A DNA stretch of 48,684 nucleotides from a virus (IMGVR_UViG_2923302340_000001); one strand, 5' to 3'; shown: positions 3,725-46,343, counted from the first letter of the stretch. Program-made: numbers and translations. The notes: a model not told the origin generated them from the sequence alone.

Positions 3725-4041
3725 ATAATACGTTTACCATATTATCACCTTCTTACTCGATTGATTGGTCGCCCAAAACAGTTGTAGAAGAAGTTTTGCA
3801 AAATGTCTCTACTATTATTAACACTCAGATTGGCACTGTACCATATGCCAGAAAATTAGGAGTTAATTCAAGTCTTGTTGATAGCCCCAGTCCAATTTTT
3901 ATTGCTACAGCAACACGAGAAATAATTCAAAAAATTAGTGAGTTTGAGCCTAGAGCGATTATCCATTCTGTTACTTTTGAAAGAACGGACGTTTCTGATG
4001 GTTTTATTAGGCCAAAACTTGTGATAGGAGTTAGAGAATGA
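3721..4041 (+). CDS. baseplate wedge protein (gpW/gp25-like)
   Basis: 106 aa immediately upstream of the J-like gene; size and position typical. Confidence 0.5.
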   Translation: MNNTFTILSPSYSIDWSPKTVVEEVLQNVSTIINTQIGTVPYARKLGVNSSLVDSPSPIFIATATREIIQKISEFEPRAIIHSVTFERTDVSDGFIRPKLVIGVRE

Positions 4042-8654: not shown

Positions 8655-9104
8655 TATGCAGCTCTCACAATATAGTTAAATGCAATATTTCTCGGACGGG
8701 TTTCACGCCCACCAGGAATTTGAAAAGCATTAGCGGTTGTAGATCCGCCTTCCTGATTAATTCCTGTTGTATAAATACCACTCACACCATTTTGCAATGC
8801 AAATACTGTTGCGGTTCCAGGCCCACCACCGGGCCCAAAATACTTAAGTTCGAACTTTTTAATATCATCACTCTGAATATTCAATAAAGCACGTCCTGTA
8901 TCAATGCCGCGTCCATCATCCCAGCCACGAATAAACTCACCGCGTAAATCAGGAAGTTTTCCTGACGGGTATGCTTTGGCAAGAGTTGGATATTTCACCT
9001 TATCAAAGGCAGCACCGTTGCATTTCAGCCAGCCCGTTGGAGGGGTTGCGGAGGGCCACGGAACAGGTACACCAACAGGCAGCGCCGAACCTTCCCCAAA
9101 CCAA
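8654..9104 (-). CDS. promoterless alternative tail-fibre C-terminal cassette B
   Basis: Shares a 232-bp direct repeat (8881..9112 vs 9367..9599) including the crossover-like site with cassette A; no ATG; motif KYPTLAKAYPSGKLPDLRGEFIRGWDDGRGID; ends ...RPRNIAFNYIVRAA. Confidence 0.45.
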
Positions 9105-9116
9105 CGTTTTTATGCA
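9091..9116 (-). other. candidate crossover site (cassette B)
   Basis: Plus strand CTTCCCCAAACC AA CGTTTTTATGCA; minus strand carries the TTGGTTT core in inverted orientation relative to 7283..7308; overlaps stop of cassette A. Confidence 0.4.
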
Positions 9117-9640
9117 GCCCTCACGATAAAGTTAAATGCAATATTTCGTGGACGGGTTTCACTCCCGCCAGTATTACCGATACTCCCTCGTGAATGAAGT
9201 GTCGGTGATGGAATCAGAGTTCCTCCGGCATCGGCAGCATCAAGCCCCCGGCCTTGCGTATATGCTCTTCTGAAGATTGTCGCCAGTTCCCATTCCTCTT
9301 TTGAATCATACCCATCGTTGGCAACAACAATATGGCGGTGTTTTTCCAGCATCCCAGTCTGAATGCTCAATAAAGCACGTCCTGCATCAATACCACGCCC
9401 GTCATCCCAGCCACGAATAAACTCACCGCGTAAATCAGGAAGTTTTCCTGACGGGTATGCTTTGGCAAGAGTTGGATATTTCACCTTATCAAAGGCAGCA
9501 CCGTTGCATTTCAGCCAGCCCGTTGGAGGGGTTGCGGAGGGCCACGGAACAGGTACACCAACAGGCAGCGCCGAACCTTCCCCCAAACCAACGTTTTTAA
9601 CTTCGTGAACTGAGCTATCTAATAGCATTTTCACTAACAT
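9110..9640 (-). CDS. alternative tail-fibre C-terminal cassette A
   Basis: 176-aa ORF; codons downstream of the crossover-like site are in the frame needed for fusion to the fibre constant part (...DYL | GLGEGSALPVGVPVPW...). Confidence 0.5.
   Translation of the reverse strand: MLVKMLLDSSVHEVKNVGLGEGSALPVGVPVPWPSATPPTGWLKCNGAAFDKVKYPTLAKAYPSGKLPDLRGEFIRGWDDGRGIDAGRALLSIQTGMLEKHRHIVVANDGYDSKEEWELATIFRRAYTQGRGLDAADAGGTLIPSPTLHSRGSIGNTGGSETRPRNIAFNFIVRAA
9578..9603 (-). other. candidate crossover site (cassette A)
   Basis: Plus strand TTCCCCCAAACC AA CGTTTTTAACTT; minus strand AAGTTAAAAACG TT GGTTTGGGGGAA; 45 bp from invertase start. Confidence 0.45.
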
Positions 9641-9647
9641 AAACGGG

Positions 9648-10217
9648 ATGCTTTTTATGCAAATTGGCTATATTCGCGTATCAACAAATGACCAGAATAC
9701 AGATTTACAACGTAATGCTCTGAACTGTGCAGGATGTGAGCTGATTTTTGAGGATAAAATCAGTGGAACGAAGTCAGCCAGACCGGGATTGAAAAAACTG
9801 CTCAGAACGTTATCAGAAGGAGACACGCTGGTTGTCTGGAAGCTGGACAGGTTGGGTAGAAGCATGAAACACCTGATCACTCTTATTGAGGAACTACGGG
9901 AAAAAGGTGTTAATTTCCGTAGTCTGACGGACAGCATTGATACATCAACCCCTATGGGGCGTTTCTTTTTTCACGTCATGGGGGCTTTAGCAGAAATGGA
10001 GCGTGAATTAATTGTTGAGAGAACATTGGCTGGACTGGCAGCAGCTCGCGCACAGGGCCGCATTGGTGGGCGCCGCCCGAAGCTGACAAAAGAACAGCAT
10101 GAGCAAATAGCAAGGCTGATTAAAAACGGTCACGAGAGGAAACAACTGGCGATCATTTACGACATTGGTATATCAACGATTTATCGCTATCACCCTGTAG
10201 GAAGTGATTCAGCTTAA
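9648..10217 (+). CDS. DNA invertase, Hin/Gin/Cin/Pin-type serine recombinase
   Basis: N-terminus (M)QIGYIRVSTNDQNTDLQRNAL, ...TLVVWKLDRLGRSMKHL..., ...GRFFFHVMGALAEMERELIVERT..., C-terminal HTH; alternative ATG at 9657. Confidence 0.9.
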   Translation: MLFMQIGYIRVSTNDQNTDLQRNALNCAGCELIFEDKISGTKSARPGLKKLLRTLSEGDTLVVWKLDRLGRSMKHLITLIEELREKGVNFRSLTDSIDTSTPMGRFFFHVMGALAEMERELIVERTLAGLAAARAQGRIGGRRPKLTKEQHEQIARLIKNGHERKQLAIIYDIGISTIYRYHPVGSDSA

Positions 10218-10602: not shown

Positions 10603-11451
10603 ATGGATAGACCAATGCCGTCTCTACGTTCAGCTTACGTTTGTAATTTGTCGCCGGAGTTCCAGCCTCCAAAGCACCATACGCACAAGCTGCCGCTGGT
10701 GTTATCTGATGCTTTACAGCGCATTTATGGGCGTGATCTTACGTGTGAGGTTGCGTTCTACGTTAATCAACCGTCAGAGCGGAAGCGCCGGATAAACGAG
10801 CATCGTCGTCGGGCGATTAATGCTGTGATTGCTGCGATTTTGCACCATGTAAACATCATTTCTAAGCGGGTTCTGGCCAGTGCTGAGGCGTTGGCTGATT
10901 TTTGCGGCCTGTCTACCGTATCCGAAGCTGGGAACAAATCTATAACGCGCTGTACAAGGGCGTTGTCGCAACTGAAAGCGTTAGGTTTTATTGATTATGA
11001 ACGTCGCTGGGATCGGGTGAATAAACAGTATTGGCCAGCGAAAATAGAGATTCGTGATCAACTGCTGGAAACAGTTGGTATTACTGAACAAGCATGGAGA
11101 CGTGCGGTTAGCCAGAAACTTAATTACTTCAATGCGAAGAATAGCGAACGGCTTAAAAAAGCGATAACGGAGGCTGATTATAAGCGTATTGTTATTCAGG
11201 AGCAGATGGAGAATGTATGGCGTCAGAGGAAGACGGCCAGAGAGATAAAGGCAAAACAGAAAGCAGCGGAGAGAGCTGCGCGTCTTGTTCGGGAAAAGGG
11301 AGAGGCCGAACTTCGTCATCAAATCACTAGAGAGGTTAGCCAGGAATTTGCTGATGGCATGTATCCAGGTGCTGACCTTGCATATTTACGCTCCCTCGTT
11401 GATCAGCGTTATAACAGGCTAAGAAAGACCTGGACATCACTCCAACATTAA
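10603..11451 (+). CDS. repA: replication initiator RepA, IncFII RepA1-like
   Basis: ...RRRAINAVIAAILHH...CGLSTVSEAGNKSITRCTRALSQLKALGFIDYER... resembles RepA1 of IncFII plasmids (recollection); track start 10441 is an in-frame upstream extension; ATG at 10603 or 10615. Confidence 0.7.
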   Translation: MDRPMPSLRSAYVCNLSPEFQPPKHHTHKLPLVLSDALQRIYGRDLTCEVAFYVNQPSERKRRINEHRRRAINAVIAAILHHVNIISKRVLASAEALADFCGLSTVSEAGNKSITRCTRALSQLKALGFIDYERRWDRVNKQYWPAKIEIRDQLLETVGITEQAWRRAVSQKLNYFNAKNSERLKKAITEADYKRIVIQEQMENVWRQRKTAREIKAKQKAAERAARLVREKGEAELRHQITREVSQEFADGMYPGADLAYLRSLVDQRYNRLRKTWTSLQH

Positions 11452-11486: not shown

Positions 11487-11700
11487 TTATCCACGTCGCA
11501 ATAAAATAGCTGTTCAAAAAACAAGCTAAATTAATTTTCTCTAAACCTGAACACAGCGAAAATATCGTCTTTACAGGCATCAACTAATCAAGTTATCCAC
11601 AGTTTTGATATGTATATGCAAATGGTTTTTTATAATAGATGCACTAAACAAATAAATGCAAAATCACTTTCTTTTATTAAAACTTTCTTTATTTAACTTA
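11487..11700. other. putative plasmid origin (oriR-like)
   Basis: DnaA-box-like TTATCCACG (11487..11495) and perfect TTATCCACA (11593..11601) followed by ~100 bp AT-rich DNA, directly downstream of repA. Confidence 0.4.
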
Positions 11701-11703
11701 CGC

Positions 11704-11895
11704 AGGCTTTGCCTGTGAATATGTTCGCCCTTGCAGCGAGCTAAAGCTCGCGCCGGTTCGAGTCGCTACGCTCAAATATACCTCCTCCGGCAGCTGCCGG
11801 AGGCATGGAGTAGCCTGATCATCCTTTTCGAAACGGCGCGTTTCGAACTATACAAAATCAATTTATATAAGGCCGAAATAAGGCCTACGGCCGGG
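11704..11895. repeat. cluster of GC-rich palindromes/hairpins
   Basis: GCGAGC-TAAA-GCTCGC (11736..11751), perfect 20-bp palindrome CCTCCGGCAGCTGCCGGAGG (11784..11803), TTCGAAAC-GGCGC-GTTTCGAA (11827..11847), GGCC..GGCC (11871..11885). Confidence 0.6.
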
Positions 11896-12082
11896 CTTTG
11901 CAGGAGGAAGGGGCGAGCATTATCAATAAACGTCGATAAATACGCACACAGTAGCCATCAGAACGCGATAAAACGTAAGAAACATCATTTCCTATTAGAC
12001 ATAGAAAACTTGTCTTATACGCAATGTAGTAAATTTCTATTGCCACATAGGAAAAGATTTCCTATCATCGTAGATATAATAA

Positions 12083-12382
12083 ATGGAGATGGTTATGGAT
12101 AAAGATACTGTTTTAAAAATGTTGAATCCGGCTTGTTTAAAAAAAGCGGATGAATGGGAATCTCCTACATGTGGAGAAGTTCGGGCAGTCATTGGCCTGA
12201 CCGGAATGAGCGGCTCGCAGTTGGCCAAAAAACTTGGCTTAAAAGATAGTCGCAATGTTCGCAACTGGCAGATGTTAAAGGAGTCCACATCCAGATCCAG
12301 CATTCCGTATGCAGCCTGGGCGCTGCTGTGTTACTTCGCTGGATTAGGGTTAATCTTCATTGATAACAAAACAGATGTTTGA
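12083..12382 (+). CDS. hypothetical protein with HTH-like segment and hydrophobic C-terminus
   Basis: 99 aa; ...GLTGMSGSQLAKKLGL... HTH-like; C-terminal ...AAWALLCYFAGLGLIF. Confidence 0.3.
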   Translation: MEMVMDKDTVLKMLNPACLKKADEWESPTCGEVRAVIGLTGMSGSQLAKKLGLKDSRNVRNWQMLKESTSRSSIPYAAWALLCYFAGLGLIFIDNKTDV

Positions 12383-12903: not shown

Positions 12904-12913
12904 AGGATTGAGC

Positions 12914-13261
12914 ATGTGGACGGTACTTTTTAGCCAGCGATTTGACGACTGGCTAAATGAGCAAGAAGACGCTCTTCAGGAAAAGGTTTTGGCTGATTTG
13001 AAAAAGCTACAGGTTTACGGACCTGAGTTACCCAGGCCATATGCCGATACCGTAAAAGGTTCTCGGTACAAAAATATGAAAGAGCTTCGCGTTCAGTTTT
13101 CTGGCCGTCCGATAAGAGCCTTTTATGCGTTCGATCCGATTCGCCGGGCCATCGTTCTTTGTGCAGGAGACAAAAGTAACGATAAGCGGTTTTATGAAAA
13201 ACTGGTGCGTATAGCTGAGGATGAGTTTGCAGCACATCTGAACACACTGGAGAGCAAGTAA
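12914..13261 (+). CDS. type II toxin, RelE/HigB-like (addiction-module killer)
   Basis: ...GSRYKNMKELRVQFSGRPIRAFYAFDPIRRAIVLCAGDK...; toxin-first order; stop overlaps antitoxin ATG (TAATG). Confidence 0.55.
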   Translation: MWTVLFSQRFDDWLNEQEDALQEKVLADLKKLQVYGPELPRPYADTVKGSRYKNMKELRVQFSGRPIRAFYAFDPIRRAIVLCAGDKSNDKRFYEKLVRIAEDEFAAHLNTLESK

Positions 13262-13560
13262 TGAGAACATTAGATGAGGTGATTGCCAGCCGTTCACCTG
13301 AAAGCCAGGCGCGAATTAAAGAAATGGCAGATGAGATGATTCTTGAGGTCGGCTTGCAGATGATGCGTGAAGAACTCCAGTTATCACAAAAACAGGTTGC
13401 TGAGGCGATGGGTATAAGCCAGCCAGCAGTAACAAAGCTGGAGCAGCGCGGAAATGATTTAAAGCTGGCGACATTAAAGCGTTACGTTGAAGCTATGGGA
13501 GGCAAATTAAGCCTGGATGTTGAGCTTCCTACAGGAAAGCGAGTAGCGTTCCATGTCTAA
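13261..13560 (+). CDS. HigA-like HTH antitoxin (XRE family)
   Basis: 99 aa; HTH ...SQKQVAEAMGISQPAVTKLE... Confidence 0.55.
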   Translation: MRTLDEVIASRSPESQARIKEMADEMILEVGLQMMREELQLSQKQVAEAMGISQPAVTKLEQRGNDLKLATLKRYVEAMGGKLSLDVELPTGKRVAFHV

Positions 13561-17498: not shown

Positions 17499-17662
17499 GG
17501 TGATAGTTCCCTTAAAGGTTAAGGATACTCACCACCGTCTGGTTCCAATCATTGGGTGGTGAGACGTACAGGGTTGGAACTACCGGTCACCATGGAATCC
17601 GGCGAGTCTTACGACTCCCCCGCACGCCCCACCATAATTTGGGTGTAGCAGTGCTTTACGCA

Positions 17663-17683
17663 TAAAAAAACCGCTAACGCGGT
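17663..17683 (-). terminator. candidate intrinsic terminator (minus strand)
   Basis: ACCGC-TAAC-GCGGT followed on the minus strand by T7. Confidence 0.4.
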
Positions 17684-17828
17684 ATGCGCCATGATGATTA
17701 TCGGGGTTCCAATCCCGACCGTAGATTTTGCTACGGCTCGGAAAGTGTCCACCAATGGCGCATTCATGTCAATACGGCGGGATTTTAACAGAGACAACCA
17801 CATAGCGTGGGTTTATTGGTAGGCAGAA

Positions 17829-17857: not shown

Positions 17858-18234
17858 CTTTCGTGCTGATCGGATTCGCGGTCCTTTCAGCATTACGTTG
17901 TTGTATAAATACAACCACGCAAGCACAAACAGCGATCATATTCTTACCCAACTGAATAAAATTGTCCAAATAAATTTGGTTTATTAGAGCACAAAAGCGA
18001 GTGATTTTTGTGGTGTGTATTTAAGTTGATGAAAAACAATATGTTTTTATCCCTTCATTATGAAGGGGCTGCGGTGTAACATTACGCGGGGCCTTTTCGC
18101 CGATTCGCAACCGGGCACCGACTTTCAGGAAAGGATTATCCACTTGCCGTACCACGCAGGCACAAACAGCGTGCTTGCTCTCGCGTCATTTTCGTCGGTG
18201 GGGATGCCGTGAAACGGCCTGTAAGGGCCACACA

Positions 18235-18357
18235 ATGAAAAAATACTACATGTGTATTTTTATCGTTGTTACTGGAGCTTTGTTTACGCCACATGGGGAG
18301 GGTTGGAAGATTACTGATAACGCTCTGAATGTGACGATAAACATTAGCAGCAAGTAG
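18235..18357 (+). CDS. small hydrophobic peptide (40 aa)
   Basis: MKKYYMCIFIVVTGALF...; followed by a strong terminator. Confidence 0.2.
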   Translation: MKKYYMCIFIVVTGALFTPHGEGWKITDNALNVTINISSK

Positions 18358-18362
18358 CGATT

Positions 18363-18386
18363 AGGCCCCTTCGGGGGCTTTTTTTA
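18363..18386 (+). terminator. intrinsic terminator
   Basis: AGGCCCC-TTCG-GGGGC followed by T7. Confidence 0.6.
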
Positions 18387-18899: not shown

Positions 18900-19568
18900 T
18901 TACGCGGCAGTAGTCAGAGCCTCAAGCTGATTGATAATCCCCTGGATAACATCGTCTGCCTTTTTGCGTGGCGCAACGTATGAACACTCAATGAGGCTTA
19001 AGCCCTTATCCTGAGCTTTGCTCAGAGCTGGCTTGTGGGGAATGTACTTATCGACAACAAAGTATGGCGTATTAGCCAGGTACTCTTGGGCTTCGATGTA
19101 GTCAGCTTCGTTTTCAGCCGCGCCGGAAAACACCATGCAAATTTTCTTGATTGGTACACCCTTTTTAACGATGCCGTGAGCAGTGTTAACGGTGGTTTCC
19201 AGGTCATCGGTAGAGAATCGGGTTGGCAAAATAACCATATCCAGAAATTCAGATAGCTTCGGTACTGATTCAGATGCGTAGGCACCGCCATCAACGATAA
19301 CCAGGTCGTATACTTCTGATTCGATGATTTTCTGGACTTGTGATGGCGTGCCGCACGGCTGCGCCGCGATTGCAGGTTCGATATTGTTGGCCATTCTGCG
19401 TTGTACCCAACGCGTTACCGTTCCGTTAAGCACATCCATATCGATCAGGCATACATTCCAGCCAGCCTTTGCATAAGCAACTGCTAAAGCACGAGCAATG
19501 GTTGATTTGGTTACGCCGCCTTTTCCGTTGAAAATACCTACAGATATAGTCATTTGTCGAGACTCCAT
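18900..19568 (-). CDS. parA: ParA/ParF-type partition ATPase
   Basis: Deviant Walker A GIFNGKGGVTKST; 222 aa (alternative start 19553). Confidence 0.8.
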   Translation of the reverse strand: MESRQMTISVGIFNGKGGVTKSTIARALAVAYAKAGWNVCLIDMDVLNGTVTRWVQRRMANNIEPAIAAQPCGTPSQVQKIIESEVYDLVIVDGGAYASESVPKLSEFLDMVILPTRFSTDDLETTVNTAHGIVKKGVPIKKICMVFSGAAENEADYIEAQEYLANTPYFVVDKYIPHKPALSKAQDKGLSLIECSYVAPRKKADDVIQGIINQLEALTTAA

Positions 19569-19574
19569 GTGTTT

Positions 19575-19674
19575 GATTATATAATTCTATAAATCTATAT
19601 TTATAGAATGAGGTAAGCATAACCAACTTTTGAGCGGATGAAAAGCACTTTATATAATTATATAAATCTATAAT
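19575..19674. promoter_or_regulatory. partition-operon promoter with two AT-rich palindromic boxes (candidate centromere/operator)
   Basis: GATTATATAATTCTATAAATCTATATTTATAGAAT (19575..19609) and AAAAGCACTTTATATAATTATATAAATCTATAAT (19641..19674) upstream of parA. Confidence 0.4.
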
Positions 19675-29523: not shown

Positions 29524-29554
29524 TATATATTTCTATAATTATATAAATATATAG
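29522..29554. promoter_or_regulatory. AT-rich palindromic box downstream of lysis genes
   Basis: AATATATATTTCTATAATTATATAAATATATAG. Confidence 0.3.
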
Positions 29555-29692: not shown

Positions 29693-29768
29693 GGCCCCTT
29701 AGCTTAGTGGTTAGAGCAGGCGACTCATAATCGCACGGTCATCGGTTCAAATCCGGTAGGGGCCACCA
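29693..29768 (+). tRNA. tRNA with anticodon CAU (Met, or lysidine-modified Ile2 type)
   Basis: 76-nt cloverleaf: acceptor stem GGCCCCU/AGGGGCC, T-loop TTCAAAT, anticodon loop CTCATAA, encoded 3' CCA. Confidence 0.85.
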
Positions 29769-44880: not shown

Positions 44881-46343
44881 TGGGATATCGCCACGGTACT
44901 TATATATCTGAACTGGCTACATCTATAACTCCTCCAGTGCAAGTTAGTGCTGGGTTGATTGTCGCATTTGGTACGGCTCCTGTTAATCAGTTAGAAGATC
45001 CAGCCTCAGCGGTAAATAAACCTATCATTGCTTATACATACGCAGAGGCCGTATCTAAAATAGGATATAGCACAAACTTCGAGAAATATACTTTAAGCGA
45101 AGTAATTAAAGTCGCATTTGGAATATATGGTGTTGCGCCAGTTGTATTTATCAATGTGCTTGTTCCAGCAAAACATAAGAAAGACGTTACTGATGAGTTA
45201 GTAAAACTTTCTGGCGGGAAAGGTACGCTCTCTAACGATGGTGTCTTATATAAATCTGTTGTTGTGAAAAAAGCAGATGGTGATTCGCCTGGGTTAACGC
45301 TTGATACCGATTATGTGCTGGCGCTGGATGATAATGGCTATACGGTCATTACAGCTATTAGCGGAGGAAAAATTACCGAAAAAGACGCTACTCTTAAGGT
45401 TAGTTATACGCATCTTGATCCCGGTGCCGTAACTAAAAATGACATTATCGGTGGTGTGGATTCCAACACTAAAGCCAATACAGGGCTTGAGTTACTGTCA
45501 GATGTGTATCCCCGCTTCAAGTTAGTTCCTGGACAAGTGATTGCACCTGGATTTAGTTCTGATAGTGAAGTTGGTCAGCTAATGGCGGCTAAAGCCGCGC
45601 TGATTAGTGAATTGTTCAAAGCAGAAGCTATAACGGATGCGCCGACCGATAAATCTACTATCAGTGATTACTCGGCTGTTCCTGAATGGAAACAGAACAA
45701 TAATCACATGGCCGCTAACCAAACAGTGTGCTGGCCGATGGTGAAACTTGGTGACAATATTTACCATCACTCAACCCATTTAGCGGCCGCAACATGCTTG
45801 CTGGATAGTCAGTATGGTGATATTCCATCACGTTCTCCGTCAAATATAAAACTACAGATGGACGGTGCTGTACGTAAAGATGGCAGTGAAGTATGGCTTA
45901 ACATTAGCCAGGCAAACTACTTAAATGGACAGGGGATTGTAACAAGCCTTAATTTTGATGGTTGGAAATCATGGGGAAACCGTAATGCTATTTATCCAAC
46001 ATCTACAGACCCCAAAGACGCATTTCGTGTTTGCCGACGTATGTTTAACTGGGTGGGTAATACGTTAATTCTTTCGCATTGGTCAAAAATAGACAATCCT
46101 GCAAACCGTCGATTAATTGAATCGATTGTTACAAGTGCGAATATTTGGCTTAACGGCCTCACAGGTAATCAGGATATTGCAGGTGGTGTTGTTACCTTTG
46201 ATCAGTCTGAAAACACGATTACGTCATTAATGGACGGGATTGTTAAATTCCATGTAAAAATGACACCATTCTCACCTGCCAGAGATATTGAGTTCGTCAT
46301 GGAATATAATCCTGATTATCTGCTGAACTTGTTTTCTGAATAA
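44880..46343 (+). CDS. tail sheath protein
   Basis: 487 aa; sheath-like N-terminus MGYRHGTYISE...; followed by tube gene. Confidence 0.8.
   Translation: MGYRHGTYISELATSITPPVQVSAGLIVAFGTAPVNQLEDPASAVNKPIIAYTYAEAVSKIGYSTNFEKYTLSEVIKVAFGIYGVAPVVFINVLVPAKHKKDVTDELVKLSGGKGTLSNDGVLYKSVVVKKADGDSPGLTLDTDYVLALDDNGYTVITAISGGKITEKDATLKVSYTHLDPGAVTKNDIIGGVDSNTKANTGLELLSDVYPRFKLVPGQVIAPGFSSDSEVGQLMAAKAALISELFKAEAITDAPTDKSTISDYSAVPEWKQNNNHMAANQTVCWPMVKLGDNIYHHSTHLAAATCLLDSQYGDIPSRSPSNIKLQMDGAVRKDGSEVWLNISQANYLNGQGIVTSLNFDGWKSWGNRNAIYPTSTDPKDAFRVCRRMFNWVGNTLILSHWSKIDNPANRRLIESIVTSANIWLNGLTGNQDIAGGVVTFDQSENTITSLMDGIVKFHVKMTPFSPARDIEFVMEYNPDYLLNLFSE

Follow-up and report, generated by a model that had tools for sequence, protein, structure and literature searches.

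The DNA analysed here, a stretch of 48,684 nt that is referred to as the window throughout, contains a plasmid-type replication region. Its repA gene (10603..11451, + strand) encodes an IncFII-family replication initiator (Pfam PF02387, IncFII_repA, E = 1e-43) and is annotated as plasmid replication initiator RepA in plasmids that are 97-99% identical. Downstream of repA we found repeated ATGCA-type motifs, a DnaA box at the left edge of oriR (TTATCCACA, 11593..11601, + strand, a perfect pattern match) and the AT-rich end of oriR (11666..11696, + strand, GC 0.21), whose two 15-nt direct repeats (direct-repeat family D1) form a candidate unwinding element. We take this order of repA, DnaA box and AT-rich DNA to be the R1/R100-type oriR layout, on the basis of established knowledge and of the R100 sequence itself. 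At the oriR edge the GC content steps up from 0.21 (11600-11699) to 0.59 (11700-11799), and a cluster of hairpins is located here, directly 3' of repA, the DnaA box and the AT-rich repeats. The 750 bp around this cluster were 97-99% identical to 58 non-mobilizable plasmids of ~48 kb each (57 from Escherichia and one from Klebsiella) and also matched three Yersinia myophages (vB_YpM_39, 41 and 44). Because both ~48-kb plasmids and Yersinia myophages are matched, the window is, as judged by sequence, a phage-plasmid with an IncFII-type replication origin.

Several other features were observed on the element. A toxin-antitoxin pair (12908-13560; HigB2/RelE-like toxin and HTH antitoxin in related records) is situated just downstream of the replication region, which is also the position of pemIK in R100. 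Closer to the cluster, operator-like inverted repeats at 11984-12068 (ATCATTTCCTAT/ATAGGAAAAGAT and ATAGGAAA/TTTCCTAT) overlap the sole promoter-like site (12040-12068), upstream of a small ORF without a Pfam family (12095-12382); TTTCCTA and TAGGAAA of these repeats are kept in a Salmonella relative. On the other side of repA, positions 8904-10217 probably form a cassette for switching host range: a tail-fibre-end segment is present in two copies on the same strand (8904-9197 and 9363-9608), next to a gene for a serine invertase of the Hin/Cin family (9648-10217; named 'hin' in Yersinia phage vB_YpM_41). A search for inverted repeats in 8800-9700 found none. Gathering-level Rfam matches to C4 antisense RNA, isrK and ryfA lie close together at 17552-17639 (- strand), 17664-17737 (- strand) and 18087-18385 (+ strand), which suggests a P1/P7-type antisense-RNA immunity region in this phage-plasmid. 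In addition, the element carries a tRNA-Met (CAT) gene (29693-29768, + strand), and AT-rich overlapping palindromes at 19567-19673 (TTATATAATT...) had the top hairpin score of the whole window.

The GC-rich hairpin cluster that a preliminary description had placed next to the origin proved to be real, and five hairpins were found in 11701-11892. Hairpin 0 (HP0; CGCAGGCTTTGCCTGTG, 11701..11717, with the core CAGGC-TTT-GCCTG at 11703-11715) is a predicted fold and the first hairpin after the AT-rich region. It is followed by hairpin I (GCGAGCTAAAGCTCGC, 11736..11751; GCGAGC-TAAA-GCTCGC), which is supported by covariation, hairpin II (CCTCCGGCAGCTGCCGGAGG, 11784..11803), which is supported by compensatory changes, and hairpin III (TTCGAAACGGCGCGTTTCGAA, 11827..11847; TTCGAAACG-GCG-CGTTTCGAA). 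Hairpin V (GGCCTACGGCC, 11882..11892; GGCC-TAC-GGCC) has an alternative pairing AGGCC..GGCCT at 11870-11886; according to the alignments, it is limited to the clade of the window, and an A-run is found at the same place in other clades. Perfect stems of at least 6 bp summed to 26 bp in the cluster, versus 3.0 +/- 4.4 bp in dinucleotide shuffles (0 of 1000 reached 26), and only 1.4% of all 192-nt segments in the 48.7 kb equalled this sum. The single-stranded folding energy corresponded to z = -3.6 for the + strand and -2.8 for the - strand. A repeat or mobile element was rejected, since the cluster is present in a single copy in the window and its plasmid matches are always confined to the repA-oriR junction. 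Much had been made of the perfect 20-bp palindrome at hairpin II, and this stress was misplaced: perfection is lost even among 98%-identical relatives. All 12 close relatives have CCTCCGGCACTTGCCGGAGG at this position, i.e., an 8-bp stem and a 4-nt loop, the window being alone among 13 sequences in having a perfect palindrome, and distant relatives keep the stem with other loops. Thus, the perfection of the palindrome is incidental, and hairpin II is functionally an 8-bp stem with a 4-nt loop. The functional unit as a whole extends past 11895, where the cluster had been taken to end, to about 11935.

We found the core of the unit (11713-11776) by BLAST in 220 plasmids from more than 10 enterobacterial genera, and pattern scans with CCTTGCAGCG-N9-13-CGCGCCGGTTCG yielded 149 loci. 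When scanned genome-wide, the pattern was too GC-rich and gave mostly chance matches in high-GC genomes; a longer pattern applied to metagenomes succeeded. Among 115 loci with the proximal (P) motif and enough upstream DNA, 99 had a same-strand IncFII/IncI RepA homologue 280-585 bp upstream, and the DnaA box is kept in relatives 136-205 nt upstream of the P block. Three metagenome loci (L212, L227 and L252) have the P element without an IncFII RepA upstream; the upstream protein, which by eye we take to be RepFIB/RepE-like, ends ~750-870 nt before the P element, and these loci may be rearranged multi-replicon plasmids.

An alignment of 16 sequences of compact relatives (A2), in which the unit spans ~200-250 nt, revealed a common order of elements: HP0, GA(T)AATG.CCGCCCTTGCAG, hairpin I, CGCGCCGGTTCG and TCGCTACGCTC in the first half, and GTAGCACC with hairpin II, hairpin III, an A-run or hairpin V, and G(C/T)CTNGCAGGAAGGGGG in the second. 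The blocks CGCGCCGGTTCG (11749-11760) and TCGCTACGCTC (11763-11773) correspond to invariant or near-invariant columns of this alignment (11749..11773). The three helices were paired in 92.5% of cells, versus 37-45% with slid partners, and 10 pairs were changed on both sides; the observed values were reached in none of 500 shuffles. Hairpin I was paired in 99% of cells with both-side changes in three of its six pairs, and it occurred in 39 distinct variants among 116 unique loci, nearly all of them perfectly Watson-Crick. Hairpin III was paired in 100% of cells with three pairs changed on both sides, and its sole substitution among close relatives falls in the loop. Compensatory stem changes were also observed in hairpin II (CCTCCAGC/GCTGGAGG and CCTACGGC/GCCGTAGG), and at the HP0 position 35 distinct variants, R100 and pYV among them, each have a hairpin, whose sequence varies. 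For example, a Salmonella plasmid that is 73% identical retains all hairpins, with compensatory changes in HP0 (CAGGC/GCCTG to CAGAC/GTCTG) and hairpin I (GCGAGC/GCTCGC to GCGGAC/GTCCGC) and with kept stems and different loops in hairpins II and III. Among the 12 close relatives, hairpins I-III showed substitutions at 0 of 46 stem positions versus 11 of 146 other positions (one-sided Fisher p = 0.045). By these comparisons, selection acts on structure and not on coding or a fixed sequence, and the cluster is, as far as alignments can tell, a conserved non-coding module that folds as a single strand beside an IncFII-type origin.

These data bear on two other explanations of the cluster. One is that the overlapping ORF (11731..12102, + strand) encodes a small RepA4-like protein and that the hairpins are incidental to it; 123 codons are open in the window and in 98% relatives, and the ORF at the same position in R100 was named repA4. 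However, stops, frameshifts and single-base indels interrupt the frame in three relatives (L162, L002 and L157) in which the nucleotide blocks and stems are kept, the start codon is TTG and a ribosome-binding site is not evident. The ORF has no Pfam match, and its annotation in related plasmids is 'none'. We find a coding function scarcely credible and agree with the preliminary description, which held the ORF to be probably non-coding: it is a mechanical ORF rather than a gene, a positional analogue of the R100/NR1 'repA4'. The second explanation is an array of protein-binding palindromes, whether for multimer resolution (Xer/res), for partition or as an operator. The presence of several palindromes in a span of 200 bp, with the serine invertase gene 1.5 kb upstream, is in line with such an array, but compensatory stem changes and free loops are the opposite of what a sequence-specific dimer site would show, and the element accompanies repA-oriR in plasmids that lack such a recombinase. 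Besides, a search for XerC/XerD 11-bp arms 6-8 bp apart found none that were paired, the best matches having 2-3 mismatches and lying in AT-rich DNA. We therefore dropped the proposed multimer-resolution site, whose stems covary rather than keep a fixed protein-binding sequence, and hold protein-binding arrays in general to be highly improbable.

With regard to the strand on which the structure acts, mismatches in HP0 and hairpin II, read in the + orientation, comprised 40 A.C and 12 G.T, counts that are not phylogenetically independent. An A.C mismatch of the + strand becomes a G.T wobble when the minus strand is considered, so that folding is better on the latter, and the asymmetry is suggestive of a single-strand function on the minus strand. 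The same asymmetry would fit the folding of a minus-sense strand made of either RNA or DNA. A structured RNA, whether it is read off the + strand or runs leftwards into the origin as a minus-strand transcript, could serve as a regulator, primer or R-loop former and would also account for covarying stems; moreover, a tail with a weak excess of T comes after hairpin II on the minus strand. Yet neither strand showed a promoter-like site in the cluster or rightwards of it, apart from the + strand promoter of the next gene (12040-12068). Rfam gave nothing for the cluster at the gathering threshold and, even with E <= 5 admitted, no match beyond chance level (E ~1), and hairpin I is practically without G-U intermediates across its 39 variants. 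Initiation of the R1 type is not known to depend on RNA polymerase, which also counts against an RNA. A transcript is thus very unlikely, and the structured small RNA that had been offered as a candidate was abandoned, there being no promoter or terminator, no Rfam match and no + strand G-U wobble. Two related candidates were also rejected. An intrinsic terminator was represented by one weak site (hairpin II on the minus strand, tail AGGTATATTT), which was no commoner than in shuffles and whose T-run is not kept in relatives. Similarly, a tRNA-like reading of GGTTCGAGTC was accompanied by neither a tRNA call there nor a complementary T-stem.

Further analysis of the single-stranded parts of the unit pointed to its two ends. 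CAG triplets (CTG on the minus strand) are invariant at both ends in A2 (11734-11736 and 11901-11903), the conservation of the P-block CAG being partly imposed by the search pattern that collected the loci. The P block (...CGCCCTTGCAG, 11718..11736; minus strand CTGCAAGGGCG, with CTG at 11736-11734) was defined by invariant A2 columns and is a candidate primase start or binding site. Its CTG is located at the foot of hairpin I, within the minus-strand CGCTGCAAGGGCG, which matches G4's CTGCAAAGCC at 8 of 10 positions. Hairpins I-III, with stems backed by covariation, are 5' of this CTG on the template, which is a G4-like topology, and HP0 is on the other side of the P block. The D block (11894..11935, - strand; ...ATTGATAATGCTCGCCCCTTCCTC-CTG-CAAAGCC, with CTG at 11903-11901) has a C-rich tract 5' on the template and is a candidate leading-strand primer start. 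Here the CAG sits in GGCTTTGCAG (11894-11903; complement CTGCAAAGCC), and the minus-strand TCCTCCTGCAAAGCC is identical at 13 of 15 positions to each of G4 CCCTACTGCAAAGCC and alpha3 CCCTCCTGCTAAGCC; the same agreement holds for St-1, the minus strand at 11903-11894 reading ...CCCCTTCCTCCTGCAAAGCCCGG. A single copy of the 10-mer CTGCWAAGCC is present in the 48.7-kb window, versus 0.18 occurrences expected. Relatives have CCTGCTAAGCC, CCTGCCAGAC and similar sequences at the distal site, and the CTG is invariant, also in IncFII-type relatives. Unlike in G4 and in IncFII-type relatives, no conserved hairpin is found 5' on the template (to the right) of the distal CTG in the window. The proximal and distal CAG are ~165 nt apart in plasmids of the window's type, with no Ter site between them. 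In summary, resemblance to the phage start sequence and correspondence to R100 are properties of the distal CTG, and the G4 topology is that of the proximal CTG.

By analogy with the origins of G4-like phages and of R1/R100, we consider it likely that positions 11701 to ~11935 act, on the displaced template of the leading strand, as a priming signal of the G4 type (G site), which depends on primase. In this model, RepA and DnaA (box at 11593-11601) would open the AT-rich region at ~11650-11700, and DnaB would be loaded and unwind rightwards, away from repA, both as in R1/R100. The displaced minus strand, which would serve as leading-strand template, is predicted to fold into hairpins 0, I, II, III and V, in agreement with the covariation. 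The hairpins would hold SSB off two conserved CTG blocks, CTGCAAGGGCG by hairpin I and CCTCCTGCAAAGCC at 11903-11894, and DnaG would bind these blocks and start an RNA primer opposite the T of either candidate CTG. Such a primer would begin with pppAG, read rightwards in the + sense and be extended by Pol III as the leading strand. The module comes after repA, the DnaA box and the AT-rich region, and this position fits the order of events with rightward replication assumed from R1/R100; we infer priming, strand choice and replication direction by analogy with R1/R100 and G4. Direct recognition by primase is suggested because of the conserved CTG blocks and the start sequence resembling those of G4 and alpha3. 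Accounting for the cluster as a single-strand initiation site, one of the options named in the preliminary description, thus remains the favoured candidate with comparative support; it looks like a G4-type site served by primase only rather than like the n'/PriA type that had been named for comparison.

It might instead be argued that the hairpins are part of the origin proper, as a GC-rich boundary that limits or stabilises the opening by RepA/DnaA, places DnaB or holds the bubble open, and that the CTGs have no special role. HP0 indeed falls, counted from the DnaA box, inside a span equivalent to the minimal oriR of R1/R100 (188 bp); it is present in every relative, R100 included, the cluster abuts the AT-rich repeats, and the stems keep structure rather than sequence. 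This explanation leaves the invariant single-stranded blocks, the 13/15 match to the phage start and the strand asymmetry of mismatches unaccounted for, and we regard it as rather unlikely.

The G-site interpretation has to accommodate the finding that the two halves of the unit differ in distribution. The P/hairpin I element is widespread in replicons of Klebsiella, Yersinia, Serratia and Enterobacter and of phage-plasmids: it is present in pYV and in many Klebsiella, Serratia and Enterobacter plasmids, and as a variant in ColIb-P9 (E = 0.001). pYV, IncFII(K)-like and pKPC_UVA01-like plasmids and ColIb-P9 share with the window the arrangement CCCTTGCAGCG - 6-bp covarying stem - CGCGCCGGTTCG at the same position, right after HP0. 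The element is absent from R1/R100; it is not essential for this type of origin, because R1 and R100 replicate without it. In the larger plasmids, the P element and the distal unit with its CAG are ~370-390 nt apart, with two Ter-like sites and ~250 bp of other hairpins between them, whereas in the window the P element is fused with the distal CAG into one unit of ~200 nt. No name for the P/hairpin I element was found in the literature that we reached. A tentative proposal, for which we see a lesser but real chance, is that HP0, CCCTTGCAG, the covarying hairpin I and CGCGCCGGTTCG make up a distinct, so far uncharacterised cis-acting part of IncFII/IncI origins, acting as a second or alternative primase entry site at the unwound edge and, in compact replicons, pairing with the distal CTG as a two-primase unit like the G4 ori. 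If this is true, leading-strand initiation in most natural IncFII-type plasmids would depart from the R1 textbook model. In our comparison, most natural relatives had an additional hairpin-plus-CTG element under strong constraint, one that is missing from R1 and R100.

The interval between the two CTG blocks also differs in its Ter sites. R100, pYV and ColIb-P9 carry two oppositely oriented Tus Ter-like GTTGTAACTA sites between oriR and the distal CAG (45075-45095 and 45205-45228 in R100, L004; 2015-2040 located in ColIb-P9, L163; also located in pYV, L003), whereas the compact replicons, the window included, have none in the equivalent interval. A Tus-Ter terminator was rejected for the window, as every match to the GTTGTAACTA core in 11550-12050 had at least 3 mismatches; GTTGTAAC occurs a single time in the window, at 29554. 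This difference in Ter sites could be taken to mean that the hairpins themselves form a fork-arrest or termination element, which stops the returning fork in a compact replicon without Ter and so prevents rolling-circle over-replication and multimers. The repA4/ter region matters for the stability of R100-type plasmids, and the repA4 region is needed for stable maintenance of the R100-type replicon (PMC4398462). However, there is no known mechanism by which short hairpins in duplex DNA would stop a DnaB-driven fork, and the P block and hairpins I and II coexist with Ter sites in pYV-type plasmids; because of this coexistence, the hairpins are not substitutes for Ter. We judge fork arrest to be quite improbable, and a priming signal of the G4 type is the reading that we carry forward.

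Many plasmids that confer resistance or virulence rely on IncFII-type replicons, and the same type of origin here maintains a 48-kb phage-plasmid. To our knowledge, leading-strand priming of this type is known only from studies of R1/R100 carried out in 1988-1994. The existence of a compact form of the whole priming region offers a defined 240-bp target for work on copy number and stability and for annotation, in which the region of the module is currently blank or called as a spurious ORF.

The closest characterised counterpart within this replicon family is the G site of R100, R1 and ColIb-P9, with which the module shares the IncFII RepA family, the same side of oriR and an overlapping unconserved ORF. 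Masai & Arai 1989, Bernander et al. 1992 and Jiang et al. 1993 reportedly placed the leading-strand start of R1/NR1 at a primase-dependent G site, ~380-400 bp beyond oriR and close to where repA4 ends (3'). In R100 and ColIb-P9, as in the window, G(C/T)CTNGCAGG surrounds the CAG/CTG, and a G-rich tract and an AT(C/T)TATCAAT-like block come next; R100 GGTCTGGCAGGGCTGGGG and ColIb-P9 GGCTTAGCAGGGCTGGGG present the same motif as the window's distal CAG. This motif lies ~365 bp past the oriR span of 188 bp; ORF 45033-45419, which matches repA4 and which we take to be the positional repA4, has its 3' end 21 nt away. The distance from the distal CTG to the AT-rich region is ~190 bp in the window and ~365-385 bp in R100. 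R100 has no P motif, and in the window the interval is occupied by hairpins I-III; conversely, IncFII-type plasmids have conserved hairpins on the right-hand, 5' template side of the CAG that the window lacks. In direct sequence comparison, only the CAG block and the AT(C/T)TATCAAT-like block correspond between the window and R100. G site(R100) is said to be defined by blocks A-C and domains I-III, in Tanaka et al. 1994 (J Bacteriol 176:3606). Keyword searches of the literature yielded no paper with G-site sequences. When the compact unit was used as an nhmmer profile, nothing significant was detected in R100 or in phage origins, and the proximal P motif was all that was found in pYV and ColIb-P9; Smith-Waterman comparison of the unit with R100 gave weak collinear alignments with scores of 30-40, which were not borne out by the profile. 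The case for homology to the characterised G site(R100) therefore rests on one short motif, and we describe the relation to the R100 G-site region as a functional analogy with one shared motif and do not claim full homology.

The module also resembles the complementary-strand origins of phages G4, alpha3 and St-1. In the G4 ori, SSB is kept away by three stem-loops, so that two primases can bind to two SSB-free stretches of ~30 nt; primer synthesis begins at the T of a CTG that lies 3' of the stem-loops (PMC6783573). The G4 record has the primer annotated at 3970-3997 and the complementary-strand origin at 3998, with the template reading ...GGACGGCGAAAGCCGCCGTCCCTACTGCAAAGCC; that of alpha3 and St-1 reads ...GGAAGGCGTTAGCCGCCTTCCCTCCTGCTAAGCCC. 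Common to these origins and the module are at least three stem-loops within ~110-170 nt, short single-stranded flank blocks and a CTG start triplet, and the start region of the window, CCTCCTGCAAAGCC, agrees at 13 of 15 positions with CCCTACTGCAAAGCC and CCCTCCTGCTAAGCC. Hairpins I-III are, as in G4-type origins, bracketed by single-stranded blocks, here two CTG blocks on the minus strand. In contrast, the hairpin sequences are unrelated, and BLAST of the G4 origin gave matches in G4-like phages only. The phage start motif is 3' of the stem-loops on the template, whereas the phage-like motif of the window is 5' and it is the P-block CTG that is 3'. Moreover, the phage signal acts on a permanently single-stranded genome, whereas the strand in the window would need DnaB unwinding from oriR first. 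With the phiX174-type n'/PriA sites, the module would share SSB-resistant hairpins in single-stranded DNA that start priming in plasmids; it differs in that the window's sequence gives no sign of PriA dependence. Set beside these systems, the module is most likely a compact and little-studied form of a known priming element, which extends a known principle rather than introducing a new one.
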